The notes beneath the pieces were generated by a model. The model worked only from the letters and a program-made list of their open reading frames with translations, had not been told where the DNA came from and did not search any database. Positions 1 to 45,204 of a stretch of 64,000 bases of DNA are shown here, piece after piece. The stretch's first letter is position 1. Every line of letters starts with the position of its first letter. The position numbers and the translations under genes were made by a program. The stretch comes from Clavelina lepadiformis (Eukaryota). The stretch covers positions 19,028,288 to 19,092,287 of the forward strand of contig NC_135246.1 of assembly GCF_947623445.1 (NCBI RefSeq). The letters run 5' to 3'.

Positions 1-465
1 AAGAAAAGCAGGAGGTGGGTGGACAAGGTTTGGAACCTGCAAACTCTGGGAGGATATTCGGCAACTTACAACCAGAGCAGTATTAACCGGTGTTGATATC
101 TTGTTATTATGCAATACCTAAATTATTCCAACATCAGTAGTTGTTACGGCTGTTAAACTTTAGTTACTGTACATTGCTTTCGTCAACCAGAATATGTTGC
201 AAATTACCCGCTCTGCCTTCAGTCAGGCCAATGGCGCAGCATCCTGATGCACATTAGGTGGAGAGTAAAGTTTAGTGAATAACAATCCAAAGGTTCCCGG
301 TTCAAACCCAGGACCTTGCAAGTCCGTTTCGGCGTATAAACTTGAATTCCAAATGTTTTCATTGGTTTTTTTAAAAAATACACCACAACTGTGCTTAATG
401 TTCAATGCAAATAGATAAAATCGCACTTTTCGCAAATCACTTATGGAAGCGTGATTCCAATTCCG

Positions 466-547
466 CGTTGTCGGCAGGATTCGAACCTAAGCGGGCAGAG
501 CCCAGCAGATTTCTAGTCTGTCGCCTTAACCACTCGGCCACGACAAC
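466..547 (-). tRNA. tRNA-Ser(AGA), class II, 82 nt
   Basis: The reverse complement reads GTTGTCGTGGCCGAGTGGTTAAGGCGACAGACTAGAAATCTGCTGGGCTCTGCCCGCTTAGGTTCGAATCCTGCCGACAACG. It has a 3-bp D stem, a long variable arm and a GGTTCGAATCC T-arm. The anticodon loop CTAGAAA gives AGA. Confidence 0.9.
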
Positions 548-624
548 TGTGCTTAATGCATAGATGAAATAGTTAAAATACCACATTTCCGAATATCCAT
601 ATGAAATTGCAAAAGTAATATCGG

Positions 625-706
625 CGTTGTCGGCAGGATTCGAACCTACGCGGGCTGGGCCCAACAGATTTCGAGTCTGTCGCCTTAACCACTCGGCCAC
701 GACAAC
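625..706 (-). tRNA. tRNA-Ser(CGA), 82 nt
   Basis: Same scaffold 159 bp downstream. The anticodon loop CTCGAAA gives CGA. Variable arm is GGGCCCAGCCC. Confidence 0.9.
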
Positions 707-783
707 TGTGCTTAATGCATAGATGAAATAGTTAAAATGGCACATTTCCGAATATCCATATGAAATTGCAAAAGTAATATCGG

Positions 784-865
784 CGTTGTCGGCAGGATTC
801 GAACCTACGCGGGCAGGGCCCAACAGATTTCGAGTCTGTCGCCTTAACCACTCGGCCACGACAAC
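784..865 (-). tRNA. tRNA-Ser(CGA), 82 nt
   Basis: Third 159-bp sub-repeat. Anticodon loop is CTCGAAA. The variable arm differs by one base, GGGCCCTGCCC. Confidence 0.9.
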
Positions 866-942
866 TGTGCTTAATGCATAGATGAAATAGATAAAATCGC
901 ACTTTTCCGAATATCCATATGAAATTGCAAAAGTAATATCGG

Positions 943-1024
943 CGTTGTCGGCAGGATTCGAACCTACGCGGGCATAGCCTAACAGATTTCAAGTCTGTCG
1001 CCTTAACCACTCGGCCACGACAAC
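943..1024 (-). tRNA. tRNA-Ser(TGA), 82 nt
   Basis: Fourth 159-bp sub-repeat. The anticodon loop CTTGAAA gives TGA. Variable arm is TAGGCTATGCC. Confidence 0.9.
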
Positions 1025-1136
1025 TGTGCTTAATGTGAAATGCAAATAGATAAAATGGCACTTTTCTCGAATCACTAGATAGATTCCACCATGTCGGTGT
1101 TTCCGGAATCTTCTCCTGACTTTCAAATCTGACAAG

Positions 1137-1310
1137 ATGAAAATGTAGCTAGCGTAGTCTAGATAAAAATCTAGCTAGTGTAGTCTAGATGAAAATGAAG
1201 CTAGCGTAGTCTAGATGAAAATCAAGCTAGCGTAGTCTAGATGAAAATCAAGCAAGCGTAGTCTAGATGAAAATCAAGCTAGCGTAGTCTAGATGAAAAT
1301 CAAGCTGATT
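1137..1310. repeat. 26-bp minisatellite, about 6.5 copies of GATGAAAATCAAGCTAGCGTAGTCTA. It recurs in every array unit at +2309n.
   Basis: Tandem 26-mers with point variants (gtagct, ctagct, gaagct, caagct, caagca) were read directly. Confidence 0.85.
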
Positions 1311-2774
1311 TCGAGACCTAGCTACGCCTACGTCTCTGTAGTGTATTAACTATAAGCTAGTTTCAACTAAATTTTAAGTATTAAAGTAAACTTCTGTTAT
1401 TTTCTTAAGGGGTCATGTCCCAATTCAAAGAGATAGGCTTTTCAATGCAAAGTACATTAAATCAAGAAGCTACCAACGCAAAACTACATCATAAACCTAC
1501 CCTGAATTTTGGCTTGCAACAAGACCTAGGTTATGTCTGTCTACAGTCTTAATTTGGACAAAATCCTTGTACTCAGTTTTCTATAACAATTGCCTAAACT
1601 TTACAACAAGTTTTTAGCTTAACATTTTATGACAAATACTCCAAAAAAACAAAAATTCAAACCCACACAAAATTTACAACTTAGCCTAGACCTGGAACCA
1701 GCTGTCGTCAAAGCAACGACGAACTACTCCACATCGACGTCACATGCGCATTGGACCGGAAAATTTTTACTTTTTTTAATATGACGCATTGAGTGCGACA
1801 CGGTCACAATCACTGTGTTGCCGGCACAAAATTGTCGTTTTATTGGGAAGTGACCCCTTAAACGTGAAGAAATTCATAAATTTTAGTTTTACTTATGACT
1901 ATATCTATATATAGATATCTATATATATTATATAAGGTAAGTGATTAGGATTAGGATTAGGTGATTAGTAGGGCAAGTTTTTGCAACTTTTGCAACTTTT
2001 TTTACAGCTTCCGGCAGCTTCCTAAATACTCAGGATTTATGTGAGTCTAGCCAGCTGGTGGTCTAGACACCAATCAGCTGGTGGTCTAGACGGTCAAATG
2101 GTCATCAAACGGTTGTTGGCTCGTCGCTCTGCGGCTCGCTGGTTTGAACCTGCAGCTTGTCTGTCGACGTTCTCCGGTTTTTCCACTGTGCTATGAGTTC
2201 CCCCCACCCACCCTATGCTTTCTGCGCATCTTGACTTTATTGCTTTAGGACTTTGGGCGTTTTTGCAATATTATTGTGCACTTTAACGCAGTCGGACTTA
2301 CAATCTCGCAAGAAAAGCAGGAGGTGGGTGGACAAGGTTTGGAACCTGCAAACTCTGGGAGGATATTCGGCAACTTACAACCAGAGCAGTATTAACCGGT
2401 GTTGATATCTTGTTATTATGCAATACCTAAATTATTCCAACATCAGTAGTTGTTACGGCTGTTAAACTTTAGTTACTGTACATTGCTTTCGTCAACCAGA
2501 ATATGTTGCAAATTACCCGCTCTGCCTTCAGTCAGGCCAATGGCGCAGCATCCTGATGCACATTAGGTGGAGAGTAAAGTTTAGTGAATAACAATCCAAA
2601 GGTTCCCGGTTCAAACCCAGGACCTTGCAAGTCCGTTTCGGCGTATAAACTTGAATTCCAAATGTTTTCATTGGTTTTTTTAAAAAATACACCACAACTG
2701 TGCTTAATGTTCAATGCAAATAGATAAAATCGCACTTTTCGCAAATCACTTATGGAAGCGTGATTCCAATTCCG

Positions 2775-2856
2775 CGTTGTCGGCAGGATTCGAACCTAAG
2801 CGGGCAGAGCCCAGCAGATTTCTAGTCTGTCGCCTTAACCACTCGGCCACGACAAC
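2775..2856 (-). tRNA. tRNA-Ser(AGA), unit 2
   Basis: Identical copy of 466..547, offset +2309. Confidence 0.9.
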
Positions 2857-2933
2857 TGTGCTTAATGCATAGATGAAATAGTTAAAATACCACATTTCCG
2901 AATATCCATATGAAATTGCAAAAGTAATATCGG

Positions 2934-3015
2934 CGTTGTCGGCAGGATTCGAACCTACGCGGGCTGGGCCCAACAGATTTCGAGTCTGTCGCCTTAACCA
3001 CTCGGCCACGACAAC
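2934..3015 (-). tRNA. tRNA-Ser(CGA), unit 2
   Basis: Identical copy of 625..706, offset +2309. Confidence 0.9.
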
Positions 3016-3092
3016 TGTGCTTAATGCATAGATGAAATAGTTAAAATGGCACATTTCCGAATATCCATATGAAATTGCAAAAGTAATATCGG

Positions 3093-3174
3093 CGTTGTCG
3101 GCAGGATTCGAACCTACGCGGGCAGGGCCCAACAGATTTCGAGTCTGTCGCCTTAACCACTCGGCCACGACAAC
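3093..3174 (-). tRNA. tRNA-Ser(CGA), unit 2
   Basis: Identical copy of 784..865, offset +2309. Confidence 0.9.
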
Positions 3175-3251
3175 TGTGCTTAATGCATAGATGAAATAGA
3201 TAAAATCGCACTTTTCCGAATATCCATATGAAATTGCAAAAGTAATATCGG

Positions 3252-3333
3252 CGTTGTCGGCAGGATTCGAACCTACGCGGGCATAGCCTAACAGATTTCA
3301 AGTCTGTCGCCTTAACCACTCGGCCACGACAAC
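3252..3333 (-). tRNA. tRNA-Ser(TGA), unit 2
   Basis: Identical copy of 943..1024, offset +2309. Confidence 0.9.
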
Positions 3334-5083
3334 TGTGCTTAATGTGAAATGCAAATAGATAAAATGGCACTTTTCTCGAATCACTAGATAGATTCCACCA
3401 TGTCGGTGTTTCCGGAATCTTCTCCTGACTTTCAAATCTGACAAGATGAAAATGTAGCTAGCGTAGTCTAGATAAAAATCTAGCTAGTGTAGTCTAGATG
3501 AAAATGAAGCTAGCGTAGTCTAGATGAAAATCAAGCTAGCGTAGTCTAGATGAAAATCAAGCAAGCGTAGTCTAGATGAAAATCAAGCTAGCGTAGTCTA
3601 GATGAAAATCAAGCTGATTTCGAGACCTAGCTACGCCTACGTCTCTGTAGTGTATTAACTATAAGCTAGTTTCAACTAAATTTTAAGTATTAAAGTAAAC
3701 TTCTGTTATTTTCTTAAGGGGTCATGTCCCAATTCAAAGAGATAGGCTTTTCAATGCAAAGTACATTAAATCAAGAAGCTACCAACGCAAAACTACATCA
3801 TAAACCTACCCTGAATTTTGGCTTGCAACAAGACCTAGGTTATGTCTGTCTACAGTCTTAATTTGGACAAAATCCTTGTACTCAGTTTTCTATAACAATT
3901 GCCTAAACTTTACAACAAGTTTTTAGCTTAACATTTTATGACAAATACTCCAAAAAAACAAAAATTCAAACCCACACAAAATTTACAACTTAGCCTAGAC
4001 CTGGAACCAGCTGTCGTCAAAGCAACGACGAACTACTCCACATCGACGTCACATGCGCATTGGACCGGAAAATTTTTACTTTTTTTAATATGACGCATTG
4101 AGTGCGACACGGTCACAATCACTGTGTTGCCGGCACAAAATTGTCGTTTTATTGGGAAGTGACCCCTTAAACGTGAAGAAATTCATAAATTTTAGTTTTA
4201 CTTATGACTATATCTATATATAGATATCTATATATATTATATAAGGTAAGTGATTAGGATTAGGATTAGGTGATTAGTAGGGCAAGTTTTTGCAACTTTT
4301 GCAACTTTTTTTACAGCTTCCGGCAGCTTCCTAAATACTCAGGATTTATGTGAGTCTAGCCAGCTGGTGGTCTAGACACCAATCAGCTGGTGGTCTAGAC
4401 GGTCAAATGGTCATCAAACGGTTGTTGGCTCGTCGCTCTGCGGCTCGCTGGTTTGAACCTGCAGCTTGTCTGTCGACGTTCTCCGGTTTTTCCACTGTGC
4501 TATGAGTTCCCCCCACCCACCCTATGCTTTCTGCGCATCTTGACTTTATTGCTTTAGGACTTTGGGCGTTTTTGCAATATTATTGTGCACTTTAACGCAG
4601 TCGGACTTACAATCTCGCAAGAAAAGCAGGAGGTGGGTGGACAAGGTTTGGAACCTGCAAACTCTGGGAGGATATTCGGCAACTTACAACCAGAGCAGTA
4701 TTAACCGGTGTTGATATCTTGTTATTATGCAATACCTAAATTATTCCAACATCAGTAGTTGTTACGGCTGTTAAACTTTAGTTACTGTACATTGCTTTCG
4801 TCAACCAGAATATGTTGCAAATTACCCGCTCTGCCTTCAGTCAGGCCAATGGCGCAGCATCCTGATGCACATTAGGTGGAGAGTAAAGTTTAGTGAATAA
4901 CAATCCAAAGGTTCCCGGTTCAAACCCAGGACCTTGCAAGTCCGTTTCGGCGTATAAACTTGAATTCCAAATGTTTTCATTGGTTTTTTTAAAAAATACA
5001 CCACAACTGTGCTTAATGTTCAATGCAAATAGATAAAATCGCACTTTTCGCAAATCACTTATGGAAGCGTGATTCCAATTCCG

Positions 5084-5165
5084 CGTTGTCGGCAGGATTC
5101 GAACCTAAGCGGGCAGAGCCCAGCAGATTTCTAGTCTGTCGCCTTAACCACTCGGCCACGACAAC
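5084..5165 (-). tRNA. tRNA-Ser(AGA), unit 3
   Basis: Identical copy, offset +4618. Confidence 0.9.
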
Positions 5166-5242
5166 TGTGCTTAATGCATAGATGAAATAGTTAAAATACC
5201 ACATTTCCGAATATCCATATGAAATTGCAAAAGTAATATCGG

Positions 5243-5324
5243 CGTTGTCGGCAGGATTCGAACCTACGCGGGCTGGGCCCAACAGATTTCGAGTCTGTCG
5301 CCTTAACCACTCGGCCACGACAAC
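5243..5324 (-). tRNA. tRNA-Ser(CGA), unit 3
   Basis: Identical copy, offset +4618. Confidence 0.9.
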
Positions 5325-5401
5325 TGTGCTTAATGCATAGATGAAATAGTTAAAATGGCACATTTCCGAATATCCATATGAAATTGCAAAAGTAATATCG
5401 G

Positions 5402-5483
5402 CGTTGTCGGCAGGATTCGAACCTACGCGGGCAGGGCCCAACAGATTTCGAGTCTGTCGCCTTAACCACTCGGCCACGACAAC
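5402..5483 (-). tRNA. tRNA-Ser(CGA), unit 3
   Basis: Identical copy, offset +4618. Confidence 0.9.
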
Positions 5484-5560
5484 TGTGCTTAATGCATAGA
5501 TGAAATAGATAAAATCGCACTTTTCCGAATATCCATATGAAATTGCAAAAGTAATATCGG

Positions 5561-5642
5561 CGTTGTCGGCAGGATTCGAACCTACGCGGGCATAGCCTAA
5601 CAGATTTCAAGTCTGTCGCCTTAACCACTCGGCCACGACAAC
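5561..5642 (-). tRNA. tRNA-Ser(TGA), unit 3
   Basis: Identical copy, offset +4618. Confidence 0.9.
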
Positions 5643-7392
5643 TGTGCTTAATGTGAAATGCAAATAGATAAAATGGCACTTTTCTCGAATCACTAGATAG
5701 ATTCCACCATGTCGGTGTTTCCGGAATCTTCTCCTGACTTTCAAATCTGACAAGATGAAAATGTAGCTAGCGTAGTCTAGATAAAAATCTAGCTAGTGTA
5801 GTCTAGATGAAAATGAAGCTAGCGTAGTCTAGATGAAAATCAAGCTAGCGTAGTCTAGATGAAAATCAAGCAAGCGTAGTCTAGATGAAAATCAAGCTAG
5901 CGTAGTCTAGATGAAAATCAAGCTGATTTCGAGACCTAGCTACGCCTACGTCTCTGTAGTGTATTAACTATAAGCTAGTTTCAACTAAATTTTAAGTATT
6001 AAAGTAAACTTCTGTTATTTTCTTAAGGGGTCATGTCCCAATTCAAAGAGATAGGCTTTTCAATGCAAAGTACATTAAATCAAGAAGCTACCAACGCAAA
6101 ACTACATCATAAACCTACCCTGAATTTTGGCTTGCAACAAGACCTAGGTTATGTCTGTCTACAGTCTTAATTTGGACAAAATCCTTGTACTCAGTTTTCT
6201 ATAACAATTGCCTAAACTTTACAACAAGTTTTTAGCTTAACATTTTATGACAAATACTCCAAAAAAACAAAAATTCAAACCCACACAAAATTTACAACTT
6301 AGCCTAGACCTGGAACCAGCTGTCGTCAAAGCAACGACGAACTACTCCACATCGACGTCACATGCGCATTGGACCGGAAAATTTTTACTTTTTTTAATAT
6401 GACGCATTGAGTGCGACACGGTCACAATCACTGTGTTGCCGGCACAAAATTGTCGTTTTATTGGGAAGTGACCCCTTAAACGTGAAGAAATTCATAAATT
6501 TTAGTTTTACTTATGACTATATCTATATATAGATATCTATATATATTATATAAGGTAAGTGATTAGGATTAGGATTAGGTGATTAGTAGGGCAAGTTTTT
6601 GCAACTTTTGCAACTTTTTTTACAGCTTCCGGCAGCTTCCTAAATACTCAGGATTTATGTGAGTCTAGCCAGCTGGTGGTCTAGACACCAATCAGCTGGT
6701 GGTCTAGACGGTCAAATGGTCATCAAACGGTTGTTGGCTCGTCGCTCTGCGGCTCGCTGGTTTGAACCTGCAGCTTGTCTGTCGACGTTCTCCGGTTTTT
6801 CCACTGTGCTATGAGTTCCCCCCACCCACCCTATGCTTTCTGCGCATCTTGACTTTATTGCTTTAGGACTTTGGGCGTTTTTGCAATATTATTGTGCACT
6901 TTAACGCAGTCGGACTTACAATCTCGCAAGAAAAGCAGGAGGTGGGTGGACAAGGTTTGGAACCTGCAAACTCTGGGAGGATATTCGGCAACTTACAACC
7001 AGAGCAGTATTAACCGGTGTTGATATCTTGTTATTATGCAATACCTAAATTATTCCAACATCAGTAGTTGTTACGGCTGTTAAACTTTAGTTACTGTACA
7101 TTGCTTTCGTCAACCAGAATATGTTGCAAATTACCCGCTCTGCCTTCAGTCAGGCCAATGGCGCAGCATCCTGATGCACATTAGGTGGAGAGTAAAGTTT
7201 AGTGAATAACAATCCAAAGGTTCCCGGTTCAAACCCAGGACCTTGCAAGTCCGTTTCGGCGTATAAACTTGAATTCCAAATGTTTTCATTGGTTTTTTTA
7301 AAAAATACACCACAACTGTGCTTAATGTTCAATGCAAATAGATAAAATCGCACTTTTCGCAAATCACTTATGGAAGCGTGATTCCAATTCCG

Positions 7393-7474
7393 CGTTGTCG
7401 GCAGGATTCGAACCTAAGCGGGCAGAGCCCAGCAGATTTCTAGTCTGTCGCCTTAACCACTCGGCCACGACAAC
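7393..7474 (-). tRNA. tRNA-Ser(AGA), unit 4
   Basis: Identical copy, offset +6927. Confidence 0.9.
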
Positions 7475-7551
7475 TGTGCTTAATGCATAGATGAAATAGT
7501 TAAAATACCACATTTCCGAATATCCATATGAAATTGCAAAAGTAATATCGG

Positions 7552-7633
7552 CGTTGTCGGCAGGATTCGAACCTACGCGGGCTGGGCCCAACAGATTTCG
7601 AGTCTGTCGCCTTAACCACTCGGCCACGACAAC
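7552..7633 (-). tRNA. tRNA-Ser(CGA), unit 4
   Basis: Identical copy, offset +6927. Confidence 0.9.
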
Positions 7634-7710
7634 TGTGCTTAATGCATAGATGAAATAGTTAAAATGGCACATTTCCGAATATCCATATGAAATTGCAAAA
7701 GTAATATCGG

Positions 7711-7792
7711 CGTTGTCGGCAGGATTCGAACCTACGCGGGCAGGGCCCAACAGATTTCGAGTCTGTCGCCTTAACCACTCGGCCACGACAAC
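7711..7792 (-). tRNA. tRNA-Ser(CGA), unit 4
   Basis: Identical copy, offset +6927. Confidence 0.9.
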
Positions 7793-7869
7793 TGTGCTTA
7801 ATGCATAGATGAAATAGATAAAATCGCACTTTTCCGAATATCCATATGAAATTGCAAAAGTAATATCGG

Positions 7870-7951
7870 CGTTGTCGGCAGGATTCGAACCTACGCGGGC
7901 ATAGCCTAACAGATTTCAAGTCTGTCGCCTTAACCACTCGGCCACGACAAC
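7870..7951 (-). tRNA. tRNA-Ser(TGA), unit 4
   Basis: Identical copy, offset +6927. Confidence 0.9.
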
Positions 7952-9701
7952 TGTGCTTAATGTGAAATGCAAATAGATAAAATGGCACTTTTCTCGAATC
8001 ACTAGATAGATTCCACCATGTCGGTGTTTCCGGAATCTTCTCCTGACTTTCAAATCTGACAAGATGAAAATGTAGCTAGCGTAGTCTAGATAAAAATCTA
8101 GCTAGTGTAGTCTAGATGAAAATGAAGCTAGCGTAGTCTAGATGAAAATCAAGCTAGCGTAGTCTAGATGAAAATCAAGCAAGCGTAGTCTAGATGAAAA
8201 TCAAGCTAGCGTAGTCTAGATGAAAATCAAGCTGATTTCGAGACCTAGCTACGCCTACGTCTCTGTAGTGTATTAACTATAAGCTAGTTTCAACTAAATT
8301 TTAAGTATTAAAGTAAACTTCTGTTATTTTCTTAAGGGGTCATGTCCCAATTCAAAGAGATAGGCTTTTCAATGCAAAGTACATTAAATCAAGAAGCTAC
8401 CAACGCAAAACTACATCATAAACCTACCCTGAATTTTGGCTTGCAACAAGACCTAGGTTATGTCTGTCTACAGTCTTAATTTGGACAAAATCCTTGTACT
8501 CAGTTTTCTATAACAATTGCCTAAACTTTACAACAAGTTTTTAGCTTAACATTTTATGACAAATACTCCAAAAAAACAAAAATTCAAACCCACACAAAAT
8601 TTACAACTTAGCCTAGACCTGGAACCAGCTGTCGTCAAAGCAACGACGAACTACTCCACATCGACGTCACATGCGCATTGGACCGGAAAATTTTTACTTT
8701 TTTTAATATGACGCATTGAGTGCGACACGGTCACAATCACTGTGTTGCCGGCACAAAATTGTCGTTTTATTGGGAAGTGACCCCTTAAACGTGAAGAAAT
8801 TCATAAATTTTAGTTTTACTTATGACTATATCTATATATAGATATCTATATATATTATATAAGGTAAGTGATTAGGATTAGGATTAGGTGATTAGTAGGG
8901 CAAGTTTTTGCAACTTTTGCAACTTTTTTTACAGCTTCCGGCAGCTTCCTAAATACTCAGGATTTATGTGAGTCTAGCCAGCTGGTGGTCTAGACACCAA
9001 TCAGCTGGTGGTCTAGACGGTCAAATGGTCATCAAACGGTTGTTGGCTCGTCGCTCTGCGGCTCGCTGGTTTGAACCTGCAGCTTGTCTGTCGACGTTCT
9101 CCGGTTTTTCCACTGTGCTATGAGTTCCCCCCACCCACCCTATGCTTTCTGCGCATCTTGACTTTATTGCTTTAGGACTTTGGGCGTTTTTGCAATATTA
9201 TTGTGCACTTTAACGCAGTCGGACTTACAATCTCGCAAGAAAAGCAGGAGGTGGGTGGACAAGGTTTGGAACCTGCAAACTCTGGGAGGATATTCGGCAA
9301 CTTACAACCAGAGCAGTATTAACCGGTGTTGATATCTTGTTATTATGCAATACCTAAATTATTCCAACATCAGTAGTTGTTACGGCTGTTAAACTTTAGT
9401 TACTGTACATTGCTTTCGTCAACCAGAATATGTTGCAAATTACCCGCTCTGCCTTCAGTCAGGCCAATGGCGCAGCATCCTGATGCACATTAGGTGGAGA
9501 GTAAAGTTTAGTGAATAACAATCCAAAGGTTCCCGGTTCAAACCCAGGACCTTGCAAGTCCGTTTCGGCGTATAAACTTGAATTCCAAATGTTTTCATTG
9601 GTTTTTTTAAAAAATACACCACAACTGTGCTTAATGTTCAATGCAAATAGATAAAATCGCACTTTTCGCAAATCACTTATGGAAGCGTGATTCCAATTCC
9701 G

Positions 9702-9783
9702 CGTTGTCGGCAGGATTCGAACCTAAGCGGGCAGAGCCCAGCAGATTTCTAGTCTGTCGCCTTAACCACTCGGCCACGACAAC
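9702..9783 (-). tRNA. tRNA-Ser(AGA), unit 5
   Basis: Identical copy, offset +9236. Confidence 0.9.
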
Positions 9784-9860
9784 TGTGCTTAATGCATAGA
9801 TGAAATAGTTAAAATACCACATTTCCGAATATCCATATGAAATTGCAAAAGTAATATCGG

Positions 9861-9942
9861 CGTTGTCGGCAGGATTCGAACCTACGCGGGCTGGGCCCAA
9901 CAGATTTCGAGTCTGTCGCCTTAACCACTCGGCCACGACAAC
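9861..9942 (-). tRNA. tRNA-Ser(CGA), unit 5
   Basis: Identical copy, offset +9236. Confidence 0.9.
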
Positions 9943-10019
9943 TGTGCTTAATGCATAGATGAAATAGTTAAAATGGCACATTTCCGAATATCCATATGAA
10001 ATTGCAAAAGTAATATCGG

Positions 10020-10101
10020 CGTTGTCGGCAGGATTCGAACCTACGCGGGCAGGGCCCAACAGATTTCGAGTCTGTCGCCTTAACCACTCGGCCACGACAA
10101 C
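10020..10101 (-). tRNA. tRNA-Ser(CGA), unit 5
   Basis: Identical copy, offset +9236. Confidence 0.9.
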
Positions 10102-10178
10102 TGTGCTTAATGCATAGATGAAATAGATAAAATCGCACTTTTCCGAATATCCATATGAAATTGCAAAAGTAATATCGG

Positions 10179-10260
10179 CGTTGTCGGCAGGATTCGAACC
10201 TACGCGGGCATAGCCTAACAGATTTCAAGTCTGTCGCCTTAACCACTCGGCCACGACAAC
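10179..10260 (-). tRNA. tRNA-Ser(TGA), unit 5
   Basis: Identical copy, offset +9236. Confidence 0.9.
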
Positions 10261-12010
10261 TGTGCTTAATGTGAAATGCAAATAGATAAAATGGCACTTT
10301 TCTCGAATCACTAGATAGATTCCACCATGTCGGTGTTTCCGGAATCTTCTCCTGACTTTCAAATCTGACAAGATGAAAATGTAGCTAGCGTAGTCTAGAT
10401 AAAAATCTAGCTAGTGTAGTCTAGATGAAAATGAAGCTAGCGTAGTCTAGATGAAAATCAAGCTAGCGTAGTCTAGATGAAAATCAAGCAAGCGTAGTCT
10501 AGATGAAAATCAAGCTAGCGTAGTCTAGATGAAAATCAAGCTGATTTCGAGACCTAGCTACGCCTACGTCTCTGTAGTGTATTAACTATAAGCTAGTTTC
10601 AACTAAATTTTAAGTATTAAAGTAAACTTCTGTTATTTTCTTAAGGGGTCATGTCCCAATTCAAAGAGATAGGCTTTTCAATGCAAAGTACATTAAATCA
10701 AGAAGCTACCAACGCAAAACTACATCATAAACCTACCCTGAATTTTGGCTTGCAACAAGACCTAGGTTATGTCTGTCTACAGTCTTAATTTGGACAAAAT
10801 CCTTGTACTCAGTTTTCTATAACAATTGCCTAAACTTTACAACAAGTTTTTAGCTTAACATTTTATGACAAATACTCCAAAAAAACAAAAATTCAAACCC
10901 ACACAAAATTTACAACTTAGCCTAGACCTGGAACCAGCTGTCGTCAAAGCAACGACGAACTACTCCACATCGACGTCACATGCGCATTGGACCGGAAAAT
11001 TTTTACTTTTTTTAATATGACGCATTGAGTGCGACACGGTCACAATCACTGTGTTGCCGGCACAAAATTGTCGTTTTATTGGGAAGTGACCCCTTAAACG
11101 TGAAGAAATTCATAAATTTTAGTTTTACTTATGACTATATCTATATATAGATATCTATATATATTATATAAGGTAAGTGATTAGGATTAGGATTAGGTGA
11201 TTAGTAGGGCAAGTTTTTGCAACTTTTGCAACTTTTTTTACAGCTTCCGGCAGCTTCCTAAATACTCAGGATTTATGTGAGTCTAGCCAGCTGGTGGTCT
11301 AGACACCAATCAGCTGGTGGTCTAGACGGTCAAATGGTCATCAAACGGTTGTTGGCTCGTCGCTCTGCGGCTCGCTGGTTTGAACCTGCAGCTTGTCTGT
11401 CGACGTTCTCCGGTTTTTCCACTGTGCTATGAGTTCCCCCCACCCACCCTATGCTTTCTGCGCATCTTGACTTTATTGCTTTAGGACTTTGGGCGTTTTT
11501 GCAATATTATTGTGCACTTTAACGCAGTCGGACTTACAATCTCGCAAGAAAAGCAGGAGGTGGGTGGACAAGGTTTGGAACCTGCAAACTCTGGGAGGAT
11601 ATTCGGCAACTTACAACCAGAGCAGTATTAACCGGTGTTGATATCTTGTTATTATGCAATACCTAAATTATTCCAACATCAGTAGTTGTTACGGCTGTTA
11701 AACTTTAGTTACTGTACATTGCTTTCGTCAACCAGAATATGTTGCAAATTACCCGCTCTGCCTTCAGTCAGGCCAATGGCGCAGCATCCTGATGCACATT
11801 AGGTGGAGAGTAAAGTTTAGTGAATAACAATCCAAAGGTTCCCGGTTCAAACCCAGGACCTTGCAAGTCCGTTTCGGCGTATAAACTTGAATTCCAAATG
11901 TTTTCATTGGTTTTTTTAAAAAATACACCACAACTGTGCTTAATGTTCAATGCAAATAGATAAAATCGCACTTTTCGCAAATCACTTATGGAAGCGTGAT
12001 TCCAATTCCG

Positions 12011-12092
12011 CGTTGTCGGCAGGATTCGAACCTAAGCGGGCAGAGCCCAGCAGATTTCTAGTCTGTCGCCTTAACCACTCGGCCACGACAAC
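12011..12092 (-). tRNA. tRNA-Ser(AGA), unit 6
   Basis: Identical copy, offset +11545. Confidence 0.9.
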
Positions 12093-12169
12093 TGTGCTTA
12101 ATGCATAGATGAAATAGTTAAAATACCACATTTCCGAATATCCATATGAAATTGCAAAAGTAATATCGG

Positions 12170-12251
12170 CGTTGTCGGCAGGATTCGAACCTACGCGGGC
12201 TGGGCCCAACAGATTTCGAGTCTGTCGCCTTAACCACTCGGCCACGACAAC
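12170..12251 (-). tRNA. tRNA-Ser(CGA), unit 6
   Basis: Identical copy, offset +11545. Confidence 0.9.
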
Positions 12252-12328
12252 TGTGCTTAATGCATAGATGAAATAGTTAAAATGGCACATTTCCGAATAT
12301 CCATATGAAATTGCAAAAGTAATATCGG

Positions 12329-12410
12329 CGTTGTCGGCAGGATTCGAACCTACGCGGGCAGGGCCCAACAGATTTCGAGTCTGTCGCCTTAACCACTCGG
12401 CCACGACAAC
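12329..12410 (-). tRNA. tRNA-Ser(CGA), unit 6
   Basis: Identical copy, offset +11545. Confidence 0.9.
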
Positions 12411-12487
12411 TGTGCTTAATGCATAGATGAAATAGATAAAATCGCACTTTTCCGAATATCCATATGAAATTGCAAAAGTAATATCGG

Positions 12488-12569
12488 CGTTGTCGGCAGG
12501 ATTCGAACCTACGCGGGCATAGCCTAACAGATTTCAAGTCTGTCGCCTTAACCACTCGGCCACGACAAC
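12488..12569 (-). tRNA. tRNA-Ser(TGA), unit 6
   Basis: Identical copy, offset +11545. Confidence 0.9.
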
Positions 12570-13403
12570 TGTGCTTAATGTGAAATGCAAATAGATAAAA
12601 TGGCACTTTTCTCGAATCACTAGATAGATTCCACCATGTCGGTGTTTCCGGAATCTTCTCCTGACTTTCAAATCTGACAAGATGAAAATGTAGCTAGCGT
12701 AGTCTAGATAAAAATCTAGCTAGTGTAGTCTAGATGAAAATGAAGCTAGCGTAGTCTAGATGAAAATCAAGCTAGCGTAGTCTAGATGAAAATCAAGCAA
12801 GCGTAGTCTAGATGAAAATCAAGCTAGCGTAGTCTAGATGAAAATCAAGCTGATTTCGAGACCTAGCTACGCCTACGTCTCTGTAGTGTATTAACTATAA
12901 GCTAGTTTCAACTAAATTTTAAGTATTAAAGTAAACTTCTGTTATTTTCTTAAGGGGTCATGTCCCAATTCAAAGAGATAGGCTTTTCAATGCAAAGTAC
13001 ATTAAATCAAGAAGCTACCAACGCAAAACTACATCATAAACCTACCCTGAATTTTGGCTTGCAACAAGACCTAGGTTATGTCTGTCTACAGTCTTAATTT
13101 GGACAAAATCCTTGTACTCAGTTTTCTATAACAATTGCCTAAACTTTACAACAAGTTTTTAGCTTAACATTTTATGACAAATACTCCAAAAAAACAAAAA
13201 TTCAAACCCACACAAAATTTACAACTTAGCCTAGACCTGGAACCAGCTGTCGTCAAAGCAACGACGAACTACTCCACATCGACGTCACATGCGCATTGGA
13301 CCGGAAAATTTTTACTTTTTTTAATATGACGCATTGAGTGCGACACGGTCACAATCACTGTGTTGCCGGCACAAAATTGTCGTTTTATTGGGAAGTGACC
13401 CCT

Positions 13404-13760
13404 GAAGTCATTCATTGCGTCAACTTTTTCTACGCTATACTAAGCAAAGGATGAATGCTACGTAACTTAGTATAGAAGTAAATTGCTGGTAGTTACTACG
13501 AATAGACAAATGTGTTGAAAAGCAGATCTTAACGCTGACCTTTCAATTGCAAATGCATGATTATTTTGCAACTCGAGCAATTTATACGGTACAAGACGGG
13601 AAATGATGAAAAAAGAGATGCGTGAACCGAAGTATAAGTTGCAAACTGATTAACGTCGCCCAGTGGATAGATAACACAGCAGGAAACCTTCTATTGTTCT
13701 CAGTGTCATTATCAAGCTGTGAGTCTGCATATTTCTTTATTTACAGAGTCGTATGATGGC
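13404..13760 (-). repeat. Inverted copy of 52130-52490, the sequence just upstream of P3. It begins immediately at the tRNA-array boundary.
   Basis: 13404-13700 aligns with the reverse complement of 52200-52490 (gaagtcattcattgcgtcaa[c/g]tttttctacgctatactaagcaa[a/t]ggat[g/c]a[a/t]gc...). 13660-13760 aligns with the reverse complement of 52130-52240. Confidence 0.6.
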
Positions 13761-13849
13761 AACTACATAACCAAACTACAACAATAACCAAACTACAACG
13801 TTGCTTTTAACTGTCGTTTTTTGTCGTGATTGTTTTGCACTTTTTCCAG

Positions 13850-14561: not shown

Positions 14562-15909
14562 GGTGTACCGACACTTAATCACGTGACACTTAATCACGCG
14601 ACGCTTAATCACCGACACATAATCACTAGGACATTTAATCACGCGACACATAATCACTAGGACATTTAATCACGCGACACATAATCACTAGGACATTTAA
14701 TCACGCGACTTGGATACTTAATCACGCGACATTTAATCACGCGACACATAATCACTTGGATGCGACTGCCAAAGGCTTCCTTGGTCTTTCTTTTAGAACT
14801 CCCCGACAATTGTTTTGACTCCGTTGTTTCTTTAAATCAACACCAGCTTCATAAAGTCTAATTGTTACATTGTCCGAAAGTATAACCTATGTAATATCTA
14901 ACATTATTCTACTGTATTGTCACCGAAGCTCTTGACCAAAGTACCATCAAAACGTTACACCGTAAAATACAATGCTACTTGAAACTGTGTCAGAGCGTCG
15001 ATTTTGGAACTCTGGAACAATGCCACTGAATGAATTATTACAATTTACTATCACGACCGGTTTACAATTTACTATCACGGCTTTGGCAAGACAGGCTATC
15101 AGTCAAATGAAGGTGAATATGGGTGAACTGTCAGCCAGTACAAGCAACGTCATCGGGTCTGTAAGCAGAGACTTGGAACCAGGTGTACTCATGGCGCTGC
15201 CAAAAAAGCAATCTTTGAAGCGGACCTTGCAGAGAAAACGTCGCGATATGCTGACTGCACACTGTACGGCCGCTCTACAGTCTCCGATGGATACTAATTT
15301 CACAATACCAGAAACATTCCAGCGCATGATTTTGCACGACTCTGGACCTGGAAACAATCGTCTGATTCTTCTTGGCAGCAGGGATCTGCTAGACGGTTTG
15401 GCCAGAGCGAAATTGTGGCTAGCTGATGGAACGTTCAAGGTTGTACCGTCTTTGTTCTTTCAACTATACACAGTACATTTTGAACTTGTTCCCGGTCTTA
15501 TTCCTGCAGCAGTTTACTGCCTCGTTCAAAATAAAACGCGAGCAACGTACGATCGCATCCTTGATGCAATTAAAACAATGATCCCCACTGCTGTACAAGG
15601 CACTGAAACTGCGCGTGCAAAACACAGCTGACCGTTATCTGTCAAGCGAGATTTTAGTCTATCTTCGTGCAGTTGCTTACATTTCCCATGCATAACATTG
15701 CTGTAAATTGTAAATGTAAAAAAATATTGTAAATGTGTAATTAAATGTCGCGTGATTAAATGTCCTAGTGATTATGTGTCGCGTGATTAAATGTCCTAGT
15801 GATTATGTGTCGCGTGATAAAATGTCGCGTGATTAAATGTCCTAGTGATTATGTGTCGGTGATTAAGCGTCGCGTGATTAATTGTCGCGTGATTAAGTGT
15901 CACCAAACC
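14562..15909 (+). mobile_element. Non-autonomous MULE-like (Mutator superfamily) DNA transposon with long terminal inverted repeat (TIR) arrays and 8-bp TSDs
   Basis: The left end GGTGTACCGACACTTAATCACG... and the reverse complement of the right end GGTGACACTTAATCACGCGAC... are inverted repeats. Each end carries ~180 bp of tandem 12-24-bp motifs (TTAATCACGCGAC / ACATAATCACTAGGACATTTAATCACGCGAC). It is flanked by a perfect 8-bp direct repeat GGTCTGGA at 14554-14561 and 15910-15917. Internally it carries a truncated transposase ORF. Confidence 0.65.
14972..15631 (+). CDS. Truncated transposase fragment (219 aa) of the MULE-like element
   Basis: It is the only long ORF inside the TIR-bounded element. 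The motif ...LWLADGTFKVVPSLFFQLYTVHFELVPGLIPAAVYCLVQNKTRATYDRILDAI... resembles the DDE core region of MuDR/MULE transposases (D-x-T-[FY]-K ... spaced hydrophobics). At 219 aa it is too short to be autonomous. Confidence 0.45.
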   Translation: MLLETVSERRFWNSGTMPLNELLQFTITTGLQFTITALARQAISQMKVNMGELSASTSNVIGSVSRDLEPGVLMALPKKQSLKRTLQRKRRDMLTAHCTAALQSPMDTNFTIPETFQRMILHDSGPGNNRLILLGSRDLLDGLARAKLWLADGTFKVVPSLFFQLYTVHFELVPGLIPAAVYCLVQNKTRATYDRILDAIKTMIPTAVQGTETARAKHS

Positions 15910-19800: not shown

Positions 19801-20097
19801 TGTGTGAAGATGTAAGAGGCAAGAGAGGAGATACATAGTAAGAACTTCTACATGGTAAGAAAACTTAACTGGCGTAAGTACTTCATCTAAAACTTAAAAC
19901 AGTCATTTTGTGTTAAGTAAAACCTATCTGCGGTTAAATCTCTATTCAAGTAACGCAACATTTTATGAAACGCTTTTACAAAATGAAATGTTATTGTTGT
20001 GACTTGTGATGTTATTCAAGTTATTTTACCTCTTCACTATCTTTAACTTGAAATAAGGAAACTGTGACATTGACCAACTGACCTTCGTTGTCCTCGA

Positions 20098-21284
20098 TTA
20101 ATCCACTTCTTCCAGAATGTCTTCCTCGAACTCTTCATCGCTATCTATTTCATAGATCCCAAAATGTTGTGTTCGATATGCCAAATCTTGTTTTTCCTTG
20201 GCATCGTCTTCTTCGTGTTCCATTAGACTGCATAAAAGACAACATACAAAAGATAACTTCAATGAAGAATTTGTCGTATTTTGCTACTACCAGTCCGTGT
20301 TTTGGATGCAGACAAGTGCTTGCTACTGTACTTAAATCTAATGCTGTACTTCAACTTTTCAAAAGTTATTTAGTGTAATTTGCTTTGTCATTAGATTAAA
20401 ATTTTCAATTGACCATTTGGTTTACATAGACAGGTATTTGTGCAGTTATATACAGACATGTATGCTACACATTTCCAAGAACTTACTGAAGTAAAAGGTG
20501 ACCAATTCGATTACCATCTCCTTTGTTTGCGAAACTTAAACAATGTTCGAATGTCATATCTACAAATACATAAATTTAACTCAACCAAGGTTCTGTATAA
20601 GCTTATTGATATTATTAATTAATATACTTGCACCTACTATCATATCTTGTGTATTTCAGGCTATGACTTTCTAGATTGAAGAACTCCATACAAGAATATT
20701 GAACTGGTTCAAACAAACTCTTTTGATTCAATGGGTTCAGTACAATGAACCCATAGTAGGGACGAACATAGCTGACCAAAAATGAGCGAGTCATGAAATC
20801 GGCTCATGCAAGCTATGATAGACGTTTAAGCAGCAAAATAGAATATAAAATCCGTTAAAAAATAAAATAATATTACACAAAACGGTAATGAGCTTGGCTT
20901 ACCTTGAATACACAAATAACGTCCCCTCTGCGATTAATTCCTCCTAAAATAATTGAAATTTGTTTCAATAATATAGAGAATAGATTATTATTAACTGCTG
21001 GAATAACTACACGCAAACGCTGTTACACCTACACCAGTTCTTTCTAGAAAAAGTAAAACTAGGCTAAACTTTATAAAAGTACAGATAGTGTCATTGCCAT
21101 AAATTGTGAAACATGTAAAAAATTCAACAATAAAGAAAATACACAAGCAACATACCGTTTGTGTATTTAAATTGTGCTTGTAAGCTTCCACTTGACTTGC
21201 AAAATCTATGATGTGTGAAATAAATGGATTATGACGGCGAAGTGTTCTCAAAATAACGTTCTTTTCCATTTCAGAAAACATCAT
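20098..21284 (-). CDS. DCP1-like EVH1-domain protein paralogue P5, 5 exons, ~168 aa. It mirrors P4.
   Basis: Exons on the minus strand are 21156-21284 (MMFSEMEKNVILRTLRRHNPFISHIIDFASQVEAYKHNLNTQT|gtatgt), 20903-20943, 20638-20771 (S YVRPYYGFIVLNPLNQKSLFEPVQYSCMEFFNLESHSLKYTRYD), 20487-20559 (NMTFEHCLSFANKGDGNRIGHLLL) and 20098-20227 (terminal, ...DLAYRTQHFGIYEIDSDEEFEEDILEEVD*). The GT-AG introns share phases with P1-P4. Exon 2 (GGINRRGDVICVFK) has lost the canonical GTLFVY motif, so this may be an early pseudogene. Confidence 0.5.
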
Positions 21285-22040
21285 GAAAAATAGTTTGCAC
21301 AGATATGCAGTAAATCTGGTATTTTAATCGCGAGCAATATTATACATATGCACTGCACAAAGAAATTTGTGAAAGTAAAGAACATCTTTTAGACAGATTT
21401 ACTTTTCAACTGCAATCACTGTACAGGACAACTGCTTTTATAGGGCAGTCATCTTATTAAAACAAAGGGATTGTCTACTAGAAAAAAATTACAAGCAAAA
21501 AAGAACTTGAAACCATGGCTCAAAAGCAGTCAATGACGAGATCAACACAGGTTAAAAGTTGTAAGTTGGTAAACGATGCACAATGTGTGAAAAATTCAAC
21601 AGTATACACAAGCAGCATACCCTTTATGCGTTTAAAATGCAGATATAAGCTTTAACTTGTTTGGAAGAATCTATGATGTGTGAAATGTATGAATTATGAC
21701 GCCGAAGTATTCTCAAAACAACGTTCTTTTCCATTTCAGAAAAAAATGGAAATTATTTTGCACGGATATGCAGTAAACCTGGTATTTTAATCGCGAGCAA
21801 TCATATACACAAACATTGCAAAAAGAAATCTGTTAAAGTAAAGCACATCTCTTAGACAGACTTACTTTTCAACTGCAGTCATTCTACAGGACAACTGCTT
21901 TTATTGGGCTTCCATCTTATTAAAAAAAGGGATTGTCTAATGCAAGATATTACAAAGCAAAAAAATTTGAAACCATGTCTCAAAAAGTAATCAATGATGA
22001 AATCAACACAGGTTCAAAGTTGTGACTTGATTGGTGATAG
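21100..22040. repeat. Local tandem duplication with a ~480-bp period and two copies. It contains the P5 exon 1 and a second exon-1 copy.
   Basis: 21100-21560 matches 21580-22040 with ~85-90% identity read by eye (gtgaaa[c/a]atgtaaaaaattcaaca..., gtaaagaacatcttttagacagatttacttttcaactgca...). Confidence 0.6.
21639..21755 (-). pseudogene. Extra P4/P5-type exon-1 copy with an in-frame stop
   Basis: The minus strand encodes MEKNVVLRILRRHNSYISHIIDSSKQVKAYICILNA*. A TAA precedes the donor gggtatgctgc. Confidence 0.45.
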
Positions 22041-22079
22041 CACCATATTCCAAGCATAAACTTTTTCGTTAAAGATAAA

Positions 22080-22652
22080 TGGCCATTCTTTGGTAAGAGT
22101 TTCAGTAATGCACCACTGCTAATTTCCGGTTAACTGAATGAAAAGCTTTCTTTCATGAACCTTTTAACTTTGCCTTGATCTTTGATGGTTTACTTATGCG
22201 TCTCCTGCAAATCCAAAGATATTCCCAACTTCTAATTTCTTTTCTTATCACAGTTTCCAGCCTGTACTTGAGTTGCTTGGTCAATGACTTATGTCCACCA
22301 CCCAAAACCACTCCATCGCAAAAGTCCTCAATTGGCTGAGGAAACTTTGATATAACTTTGTACGATATTAGCCGTAAATCTCTAAGTGATAGTTTTTTGC
22401 AACTTTCATTACATCTTCAATAATAACCCTAACCATATACGGTATAGCTGCCAGATCTGGCATCAGGCCTTTGTCAGAAGTTTGGTTTAAAATGATTGGA
22501 AACTTGTTACAGGGATATTGAAATCCAGCTGGCCATGAGTATGACTGATAGCTCACTGATGAAGTCGACGCTTTCATACTAGTGCTGTCTTTTTCCATAA
22601 CTTCACATTTTCCTGCCACCTGAACTGTAGCAGCTAAAATTTGGAAAATCAT
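22080..22652 (-). pseudogene. Frameshifted coding remnant, probably transposon-derived
   Basis: The 94-aa ORF 22368-22652 (...ILNQTSDKGLMPDLAAIPYMVRVIIEDVMKVAKNYHLEIYG*) is continued in another frame at 22080-22370 (ISYKVISKFPQPIEDFCDGVVLGGGHKSLTKQLKYRLETVIRKEI...). There are no splice signals at the junction. Confidence 0.25.
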
Positions 22653-24033
22653 TCAAATTCATTACTGCACAGGATTTTATTTTACAACAAAGGTCACAAA
22701 TGACTAAACTCAATATGACTTCCAAGCTCTTATAAGCTTTCTTGCTTAAATAGGTTTGATAATGGAAGTGATGTCTGACTCTTGAACTTCAGATAGGTCG
22801 GCTTCCTCTTCTACTCCTATATCTTCTAAACATTTCAATAACTCTACCAATTTAAGTACGCTAAACCCAGGTAAAATTTTGCTTATGGACTGCCCTATCA
22901 CTTTCAAAAGAAAATAGCAATCAGTTGAAAGTATACAGTATCATAAATGTAACTTGATAAATGCTGTACAAATCATATTTCAACACTAACGTATACCTTT
23001 TACAGCCTGTGAGTGCCAATTTAGATAAAGCAGTATGACGTAAAGTAAGAAGCTTGCAACCATTAAGATTATAAGCAATCGAAAGATAGCCTAATAGTTA
23101 TAAAAATCGGAAATAAGCACAAACATACTCTCTATGCGCTTCTGCACTACATAAACCCCCAAGGAAAGCAAGAAACGTAACAGACGTTTTTCTACACCGA
23201 TTTATCAATAATTAACCATAACTTAAGCTTTCAACGCACCACGCATGTCTTCGCCCGAAAATGTGTTTCAGCACATACAATTTCGTTAAAAACTGTTATA
23301 GTATGACCTGTAAGCCTATACTGGGAACAGTACTGGTGTAGTGGGAAATAGTCACCCCTGCCAAATATTGAACTCCCTCTGTGACGTAATGAATTCATTG
23401 TCTGATAAAGGATTTGACTCAGCAGAAAACGTACCATTATTCTATGGCTGAATAGTGTAATATAGTAACTTTTGTGAATGCATGTATACTGGAAAACAAA
23501 ATACCCTATACACTGTATACAGGTTACATTTGTTGGCCTACTTCTGTCAGTAAGTTCTGTAGGCTACTTGTGTATAGACTTGTCACGGTTACGTCAAGAG
23601 TCACGACTTGTTTTGTCGATGCTGGAATTTTATTTCGGGATCTTGTAATTCAGTTGTTGACCAAACTTAAATTCTCTGTAATGACGTTCAGATAAATTAC
23701 CTCGCTTGAACTGGTGTGCCACATATATATACTGTTGTAATGTTTACAACTTCCTTTTTACACTTTACTCTGTCACTTGTTACTACCGCGCAATGTTACA
23801 TTCAGTAAGCTTTACTCGAAGGTGAAAGCCTTTGTGTCTGATAATAAATAAAATGGGAACTTTATAATTTAGTAATTTATATAGACAGAATTAAGCAACT
23901 AACAGCATAATCACGCCGTTTGAGAAATGATAACTCATATCATCAAAGCAGAAGCAAAACAAGTTATCAACCATCAATCGTCCTCGCTCATATTGCAACA
24001 ATAGCCGCCAGTGTACGCGGTCTTTATGGCGAA

Positions 24034-42750: not shown

Positions 42751-42767
42751 GGAAGAGTTGAGTTGCA

Positions 42768-45199: not shown

Positions 45200-45204
45200 A
45201 TATA

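Follow-up and report, generated by a model that had tools for sequence, protein, structure and literature searches.

The genome of Clavelina lepadiformis contains, on contig NC_135246.1, a tandem array of tRNA-Ser genes that occupies the left end of a stretch of 64,000 nt (positions 19,028,288 to 19,092,287 of the forward strand); the whole stretch is called the window here, and the coordinates of the array count from window position 1. In a base-by-base self-comparison at an offset of 2309 there are 0 mismatches for positions 1-11094, so that positions 1-13403 are perfectly periodic, and the neighbouring offsets 2300-2319 give about 7,800-8,300 mismatches per 11,000, which is the random level. 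Also all internal repeats found by Tandem Repeats Finder (TRF) reappear at +2309. The array consists of five full units (1-2309, 2310-4618, 4619-6927, 6928-9236 and 9237-11545) and one partial unit of 1,858 bp (11546-13403), together 5.80 copies in the window, and it is open at the left window edge, past which it continues. On the right, the final base that can be assigned to a feature of the unit is 13402; the T at 13403 fits both the next unit and the paralog of the flank and can be assigned to neither. In the remaining 50 kb of the window, no further copy of any part of the unit was found. A sequence-only reading of the window had described a 2309-bp unit with four tRNA-Ser genes that is repeated about 5.8 times with zero divergence and runs off the left edge, and this description is exact by the offset comparison, by ARAGORN and by the Rfam model. 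The array is a genuine tRNA gene macrosatellite, i.e. a head-to-tail repetition of a unit of more than 1 kb that holds tRNA genes, and it adds a previously undescribed member to this known class.

The repeat unit and its tRNA-Ser genes

The 24 tRNA-Ser genes of the array all lie on the minus strand, four per unit and 159 bp apart, on which ARAGORN and the Rfam tRNA covariance model agree, the latter with scores of 64.3, 62.9, 62.9 and 51.5 bits (gathering score 29 bits). Three anticodons are found among the four genes, in the transcription order TGA, CGA, CGA and AGA. The first in transcription direction is tRNA-Ser(TGA) at 943-1024 (64.3 bits; identical copies at 3252-3333, 5561-5642, 7870-7951, 10179-10260 and 12488-12569), and it is followed by two fully canonical tRNA-Ser(CGA) genes of 62.9 bits each, CGA b at 784-865 (copies at 3093-3174, 5402-5483, 7711-7792, 10020-10101 and 12329-12410) and CGA a at 625-706 (copies at 2934-3015, 5243-5324, 7552-7633, 9861-9942 and 12170-12251). 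The fourth, tRNA-Ser(AGA) at 466-547 (51.5 bits; copies at 2775-2856, 5084-5165, 7393-7474, 9702-9783 and 12011-12092), is impaired. Behind it, likewise on the minus strand, a spacer and the remnant of a fifth tRNA-Ser module, cut off after its first 9 nt, are found at 381-464 (repeat family D10, CACCACAACTGTGCTTAATG... compared with CACGACAACTGTGCTTAATG...; copies at 2690-2773, 4999-5082, 7308-7391, 9617-9700 and 11926-12009). A permissive Rfam scan of the unit gave no RNA family besides the four tRNA genes, and weak matches to 'Plastid-ycf2' turned out to be merely tRNA antisense.

All 24 genes have an A box and a B box (TGGCCGAGTGG, GGTTCGAATCC; the consensus sequences used were TRGCNNAGTGG for the A box and GGTTCGANTCC for the B box), a long variable arm, the discriminator G73 and no encoded CCA, the bases after G73 being CCG or GGA. 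From these features they are predicted to be eukaryotic cytosolic tRNA-Ser(UCN) genes with a type 2 promoter of RNA polymerase III (Pol III). The variable arms come in array-specific variants (GGGCCCAGCCC, GGGCCCTGCCC and AGGCTATGCCC). In the TGA gene and in both CGA genes every stem is paired and a TTTT starts 9 nt past G73; the AGA gene has the stem mismatches A27.C43 and U49.C65, and more than 40 nt separate it from the first downstream T4 run. A strict structural test thereby finds 18 of the 24 genes canonical and the 6 AGA copies impaired. The check for pseudogenes that had been proposed together with the initial description of the unit is approximated by this test, which three genes per unit pass fully and the AGA gene, with its two stem mismatches, does not. 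Judged by its sequence, the array looks like a fresh set of mostly intact tRNA-Ser genes.

Within the unit, the four 159-bp tRNA modules are mutually only 83-96% identical, which means that the 159-bp duplications are old and the 2309-bp duplications new, and it is through local 159-bp duplication that the tRNA-Ser(UCN) isoacceptors of the unit arose. An origin of the modules from a tRNA-derived short interspersed element was rejected, as the genes are full length and have a fixed head-to-tail spacing of 159 bp, no tail and no duplication per copy.

For comparison, five loci of the same family (L003, L004, L005, L007 and L008) were taken from the C. lepadiformis assembly GCA_961645235.1 (Cvlepa_BANY2021, PMC10950049), in which the unit of the window has paralogs of 95-98%; they were located via about a dozen C. 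lepadiformis 'unnamed protein products' that match a spurious open reading frame (ORF) through the tRNA sub-array. In tRNA sense, the unit is composed of a 449-bp element (1857 to 1409), about 385 bp of spacer, the four tRNA genes, the truncated fifth module (464 to 381), an array-specific segment of about 476 bp (394 to 1 plus 2309 to 2228), a module of about 210 bp (2250 to 2041) and then 180 bp more. The spacer includes a 26-bp minisatellite of 6.6 copies, detected by TRF (repeat family D2; 1135-1306 and again at 3444-3615, 5753-5924, 8062-8233, 10371-10542 and 12680-12851). The array-specific segment (2228-2703, i.e. unit positions 2228-2309 and 1-394) is present in every unit, absent in L007 and partial in L005. 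The module of about 210 bp (2041-2250; copies at 4350-4559, 6659-6868, 8968-9177 and 11277-11486) is an inter-cluster module, 82-96% identical copies of which part the tRNA runs in L003, L004, L005, L007 and L008, that is in all Clavelina tRNA-Ser arrays examined. It is the best-conserved non-tRNA sequence of the family and holds a direct repeat of CAGCTGGTGGTCTAGAC.

A TTAA-flanked element and the end of the array

The 449-bp element, a feature of the unit that was absent from the sequence-only reading, lies at 1409-1857 between a TTAA at 1405-1408 and another at 1858-1861, and its further internal copies are found at 3718-4166, 6027-6475, 8336-8784 and 10645-11093. It has terminal inverted repeats (TIRs), GGGGTCATGTCCC at the start and GGGAAGTGACCCC at the end, with 11 of 13 positions matching between GGGGTCATGTCCC and the reverse complement GGGGTCACTTCCC, and such a TIR together with TTAA occurs in the shuffled unit with a frequency of 0.0002. 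Copies that are 98.4-99.6% identical are found in other contexts in L005 and L007. TTAA is present at 8 of 8 ends of the four full copies (the window unit, the middle copy of L005, and M1 and M2 of L007), and these eight include the two outer ends in L007, which have unrelated flanks; the two rearranged element ends carry TGAA (window) and TTTA (L005). Copies of the element thus occur at three loci with several unrelated flanks, each full copy being still joined to tRNA-Ser cargo on at least one side, and a 37-nt fragment of the element end is found elsewhere in L005. On the grounds of its termini and flanks the element can be called a putative TTAA-targeting non-autonomous DNA transposon, without assignment to a superfamily. 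That TA, as in Tc1/mariner-type elements, is the target instead of TTAA is less likely, as the additional outer T and A are present at 4 of 4 independent flanks. A Helitron or other rolling-circle element was rejected, because TIRs and TTAA flanks are present and there is no 5'-TC, no CTRR-3' and no 3' hairpin. In the JGI metagenomes, no match to the terminal 24-mer of the element was found.

The final base of a terminal element copy (12954-13402) is also the final base of the array, the sequence there being ...GTGACCCC/TGAAGTC (the slash marks the junction here and below), so that the outer flank reads TGAA and not TTAA. The right flank (13404-13764) is an 87% paralog of window positions 52484 to 52133, and as this homology begins at 13404, the first base past the array, the junction between array and flank is a sharp breakpoint. 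An element copy is found at every duplication junction, and the array ends at an element terminus. Also in L005, one unit-like copy ends at the right terminus of the element with a different flank, CCCC/TTTATAGG, and another copy ends at a TTAA left of the expected element position, CTTAA/AGCATAGC. In L007, two direct copies of the element bracket a cluster of three tRNA-Ser genes in the layout flank-TTAA-element-TTAA-[spacer and three tRNA-Ser]-TTAA-element-TTAA-flank, with TTAA at all four ends and with both outer flanks unrelated to the unit. Junctions with new flanks are thus found at element termini at the window end, in the right arm of L005 and at the left and right outer ends of L007, and for four random breakpoints each to fall within 1 nt of a terminus the probability is about 5e-11. 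The element copies of L007 are closer to the copy of the window than are the adjoining unique flanks (2/449 and 3/459 differences vs 9/284; p=0.004 and 0.013).

Two alternative assignments of these loci were rejected. Neither L005 nor L007 is the single-copy allelic state of the window locus, as their flanks are unrelated to it, and what appeared to be a 'solo' element copy in L007 is actually one element, the left copy, into which a further sequence of 3.17 kb has inserted. This nested insertion measures 3,172 bp (reverse-complement coordinates 6378-9549) and has at its ends the 11-bp direct duplication TCACAATCACT, the length of which is typical of Mutator-like elements.

The tRNA-Ser family and comparable arrays

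The array belongs to a large family. A regex census counted 294 tRNA-Ser modules in the 118 kb sampled, with the anticodons CGA (227), TGA (37), AGA (29) and GGA (1), and the tRNA-Ser genes per locus number 60 in L003, 92 in L004, 95 in L008, 8 in L005 and 3 in L007. L004 and L008 lie on one contig (CAUIVY010000006.1, 2,676,125-2,724,439), L008 being 7 kb beyond L004, so that the tRNA-Ser array on this contig spans at least 48 kb. In the two stretches that were fetched from it there are 187 tRNA-Ser genes, nearly all CGA and 2-7% of them structurally intact, and the dominant periods are 159, 643 and 649 bp. The suggestion of the sequence-only reading that arrays of this kind are rare therefore does not hold in this genome. 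The higher-order copies of L004 are 92-98% alike, and 94 distinct tRNA bodies are found among 179 modules, in which the diversity of the tRNA body (0.097) is lower than that of the spacers (0.22-0.27) by a factor of 2.5. The covariance-model scores in the other arrays form a continuum from 67 down to the threshold of 29 bits, and the strict canonical test is passed by 5 of 66 genes in L003, 2 of 94 in L004, 7 of 95 in L008, 2 of 12 in L005 and 1 of 3 in L007. The other arrays are thus heterogeneous and mostly degenerate, and the array of the window with its perfect identity and 18 of 24 canonical genes is an outlier. As a whole, the family looks like a proliferating and decaying tRNA-derived satellite. 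CGA is normally a minor tRNA-Ser isoacceptor in animals, and because this minor isoacceptor is in excess and the other copies are widely decayed, it is suggested that the family spreads as satellite-like DNA and not by translational demand.

Some further observations concern the individual arrays. L003 contains a single tRNA-Ser(GGA) gene of 61.4 bits at 1322-1404 (minus strand), which has the opposite orientation to the array and lies immediately behind a diverged relative of the element. Animals do not usually have a G34 Ser(GGA) gene. Embedded in the same tRNA-Ser array is a 3.4-kb minisatellite (5627-9023) with 28-bp units and about 99.9% self-identity. Public gene models of C. lepadiformis ('unnamed protein product', 125-244 aa; P0241-P0251) translate the sense strand of tRNA-Ser arrays (MAEWLRRQTRNLLG...); some of them have faint Pfam matches, they are now present in UniRef and nr, and such protein models are almost certainly spurious. 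tRNAs are mentioned in neither of the two C. lepadiformis genome papers; we infer, as the authors do not state it, that much of the 7,251 remainder in the annotation of this species is the tRNAscan output of funannotate. For tunicates, wide variation of the tRNA complement and a partial clustering of the genes are known (PMC5006418). A 6-kb contig of another organism (L009; ENA ERZ26222911, ctg480660) carries 35 tRNA-Ser(AGA/TGA) genes with a period of about 170 bp, and it can be concluded that tRNA-Ser arrays arise repeatedly. The acceptor stem of these genes is GTAGTCG and differs from that of Clavelina. The beginning and the end of the contig overlap (99.5% self-match at offset 5456), a sign of either a higher-order repeat or an assembly path that is circular.

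In Xenopus laevis, a 3.18-kb tDNA repeat contains eight genes of several isotypes and is tandem and highly homogeneous, and to our knowledge no transposon has a role in it. The sequence-only reading had named the Xenopus repeat as the precedent, and the comparison stands in so far as both systems have a tandem multi-tRNA unit of a few kb, but the unit of Clavelina holds tRNA-Ser(UCN) isoacceptors only, and Xenopus is one of several cases beside human 1q23.3, the Ser-Tyr-Tyr cluster of Arabidopsis, Entamoeba and zebrafish chromosome 4. The tRNA variable-number tandem repeat (VNTR) at human 1q23.3 (Darrow & Chadwick 2014, PMC4041453) likewise has a kb-scale multi-tRNA unit in head-to-tail order and is unstable with a variable copy number, and the same can be predicted for the array of Clavelina. 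The human unit measures 7.3 kb, is GC-rich and of mixed isotypes, and is present in 9-43 copies, with binding of CTCF and with long terminal repeats of endogenous retroviruses as flanks, whereas the unit of Clavelina measures 2.3 kb, is AT-rich and of a single isotype, and a DNA transposon marks the array end. On chromosome 1 of Arabidopsis, a tandem unit with tRNA-Ser (Ser-Tyr-Tyr) is repeated 27 times and is surplus to the dispersed genes (PMC7544208, PMC12308677), which is a similar situation, but that cluster is of a plant, pericentromeric, older and diverged, its unit is mixed Ser/Tyr, and no boundary at a transposon terminus has been described. It is mostly epigenetically silenced (PMC7544208), and by analogy silencing is a plausible fate also of the Clavelina arrays. 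Entamoeba (PMC2652664) and zebrafish chromosome 4 (PMC11417395) are likewise examples of genome-wide tandem tRNA arrays or clusters with intergenic short tandem repeats; in Entamoeba nearly all isotypes are arrayed (PMC2652664), whereas the evidence in Clavelina is for one satellite-like isotype with many decayed copies. The array is set apart from the known tRNA macrosatellites in being a single-isotype and young member of a decaying family that is perfectly homogeneous and has a boundary at a transposon terminus.

The rest of the window contains further repeats and a gene. A transposon ORF in the flank of the array is 98% identical to a Clavelina lepadiformis protein. At 14570-15901 there is a transposon-like region in which inverted subterminal blocks of 15/31-bp repeats (14570-14760 and 15740-15901) flank a 219-aa ORF (14972-15631) that has no Pfam match. 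Another repeat, at 36136-37763, encodes a 243-aa ORF (36465-37196) with no Pfam domain and is 97% identical to a Clavelina copy, L006, which had been considered as the locus of the window and was rejected because it proved to be a further transposon copy (97%). The ORF has 60-70% protein identity to 'uncharacterized proteins' of sturgeon, lamprey, piranha, frogs and a moth and belongs to a family of transposon proteins with a wide but patchy distribution. An EHD (EH-domain/dynamin-like) gene has exons at 33981-39791, where 33981-34535 encodes EHD_N and Dynamin_N and 39348-39791 the EH domain. A contig of the Tara Oceans marine metagenome (L001) is 96.7% identical to this region over 1.37 kb, which indicates DNA of C. 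lepadiformis or a sister species in plankton samples. A local tandem duplication of about 3.3-3.9 kb with 97% identity (39505-42750 vs 42767-46628, in total 39505-46628) begins inside the EH-domain exon region. The gene is enclosed by a large, diverged inverted duplication (about 19900-30430 vs 61325-45940), the arms of which are 73-86% identical by blastn and 90-97% locally; the duplicated arms of about 90% identity named in the sequence-only reading are real. The second arm is longer by about 5 kb (50.1-55.7 kb), and this additional part holds the paralog of the right flank of the array.

Origin and age of the array

The initial description had offered recent amplification, concerted evolution or an assembly artefact as explanations for the perfect identity, which were the right options, and the evidence favours recent amplification, because the sub-repeats are 83-96% and the other arrays 92-98% alike and because the junction at the array end is sharp. 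The array is probably real and very young, a higher-order tandem array of Pol III genes that goes back to the recent amplification of a segment bounded by a transposon. Its 13,403 bp show no substitution, and if the genealogy is assumed to be star-like, the copies have a mean age with a 95% upper bound of about 2.2x10^4 generations at 1e-8 mutations per site and generation and 2.2x10^5 at 1e-9; at the assumed 1e-8 the array would therefore have expanded within roughly the last 2x10^4 generations.

For the mechanism, it can be envisaged that a segment of the type element-cargo-element was duplicated first, for which there are two candidate routes: unequal exchange, sister-chromatid or homologous, with the two direct copies of the element as its sites, and a transposase-mediated aberrant (alternative) transposition. 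Later growth to at least 6 units would have taken place through unequal exchange. We infer such a duplication with subsequent expansion from the anatomy of the array. Composite transposons and insertion sequence-flanked amplifications of bacteria are known to give arrays of the type (cargo-element)n by unequal exchange between direct copies. The likeness to these systems lies in the two direct copies of a small element that bracket a cargo in L007, but Clavelina is a eukaryote, the element is non-autonomous, the cargo consists of Pol III genes, and a mobility of the composite as one unit is putative. It is conceivable, though doubtful, that a pair of such TTAA-targeting elements constitutes a eukaryotic composite transposon that moves the tRNA-Ser cluster between chromosomes (the window locus, L005 and L007) and, through exchange or an aberrant transposition that involves its termini, gives rise to new tandem arrays. 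A parallel is found in maize, where the termini of Ac/Ds transposons directly generate tandem direct duplications (PMC3744419, PMC4270019), again with a class II element at the junctions and a block that ends at a transposon terminus; the novel junctions in maize carry an 8-bp target duplication that proves the action of the transposase, whereas the visible junction in Clavelina is TGAA and not TTAA. A participation of the transposon in this way predicts that the left start of the array reads TTAA/GGGGTCATG, i.e. the left terminus of the element, and is preceded by unrelated sequence, possibly a homologue of the reverse complement of window positions 52485-52900.

Several findings weigh against a recent, element-driven origin. 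The right junction of the array, CCCC/TGAA, and the junction in L005, CCCC/TTTA, do not read TTAA and are thus not canonical integrations, no target-site duplication is found at the novel right junction with its TGAA, and the paralogous site of the flank reads AAATCT/GAAG, also without TTAA. The window includes only the right end of the array, with the predicted start at the left terminus of the element lying outside, and the 5.80 copies are a lower bound that comes from the assembled sequence alone. The termini of the element are GGGG...CCCC and not the canonical CCC...GGG of piggyBac, and no autonomous transposase partner was found, a negative that does not come from a direct search of the Clavelina genome. 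A search for an empty site of the element found none, and L003 has a diverged relative of the element there instead; as this relative sits at the same position, the element may have long belonged to the repeat family instead of having caused the duplication. In the large CGA arrays L004 and L008 the element is wholly absent, so that it does not account for the overall expansion of the family.

A recent amplification might also have been selected for dosage, the block having been amplified for more tRNA-Ser, e.g. as a maternal oocyte-type store as has been proposed for the clusters of zebrafish and Xenopus. In each unit, three of the four genes have promoter boxes, terminators and a fully canonical structure, across the family the tRNA body is less diverse than the spacers by the factor of 2.5 given above, and zebrafish maternal tRNAs are indeed encoded in repetitive clusters (PMC11417395). 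An adaptive array is nevertheless unlikely, as the family is dominated by CGA (227 of 294), only 2-8% of the genes in the large arrays are intact, and the damaged gene of the unit is AGA, normally the major isoacceptor; moreover, the clustered tRNA arrays of Arabidopsis are silenced (PMC7544208).

With respect to an assembly artefact, the tandem could be real and its unit number or perfect identity could result from hifiasm having resolved or consensus-collapsed an array of about read length. Both public C. lepadiformis assemblies are based on PacBio and hifiasm, the assembly kaClaLepa1.1 on 117x HiFi with fragments of 12-20 kb (PMC10884593), and if the window comes from this assembly, a perfect array that is longer than the fragments could not be spanned; the array has at least 13.4 kb and an open left end. 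The ORFs of the window are absent from the public gene-position index, exact-protein look-ups of them gave no record, and no independent assembly of the locus was found. On the other hand, the 2309/1 junction must occur in reads for any tandem to assemble, and the junction between array and flank is clean and biologically meaningful, being a transposon terminus. In addition, the related arrays of Cvlepa_BANY2021 keep their variation (92-98% between higher-order copies, 94 distinct tRNA bodies), which indicates that identity is not imposed by the assembly method, and an artefact is rather improbable.

The same low probability applies to a one-step origin, in which recombination between flanking elements releases a single unit, i.e. 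the cargo with one element, as a circle that is amplified by rolling-circle replication, or in which re-replication after an alternative transposition occurs, the concatemer being fixed in place. A single event would be the simplest account of the perfect unit identity, the array ends at an element terminus, and transposition-induced re-replication is documented in maize (PMC4270019), but the element has no Helitron-type ends (no 5'-TC, no CTRR-3', no 3' hairpin), and the visible anatomy would be the same after stepwise unequal exchange. It is very unlikely that the array is old, without a recent birth, and that strong concerted evolution, with continuous gene conversion and unequal exchange, has kept its units the same. 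Such homogenisation is the classic explanation of identical tandem genes, and a hint at conversion in the family comes from the dispersed element copies, which resemble one another more than their surroundings do (p=0.004). It would, however, have to leave zero differences in 13.4 kb next to sister arrays that are 92-98% alike, and a conversion that erases differences in the 2.3-kb register should also hit the 159-bp register, where the modules inside the unit are 4-17% diverged and not homogenised.

A recent amplification of a transposon-bounded segment is thus the favoured origin of the array, which is also a likely place for copy-number polymorphism and assembly error. The transposon-bounded architecture, which is partly established, is its most interesting part. 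tRNA gene number is usually taken as a slowly evolving proxy for translational supply, and here one isotype is satellite-like in a chordate genome of about 210 Mb. The array has zero substitutions and ends at a transposon terminus, it can be compared with older paralogs, and it is young enough that its birth can be studied directly. If the link to the transposon is true, it would provide a concrete mechanism by which tRNA gene clusters are copied, dispersed and amplified, and the array would be a natural system in which the mutation and decay of Pol III genes can be measured from time zero.

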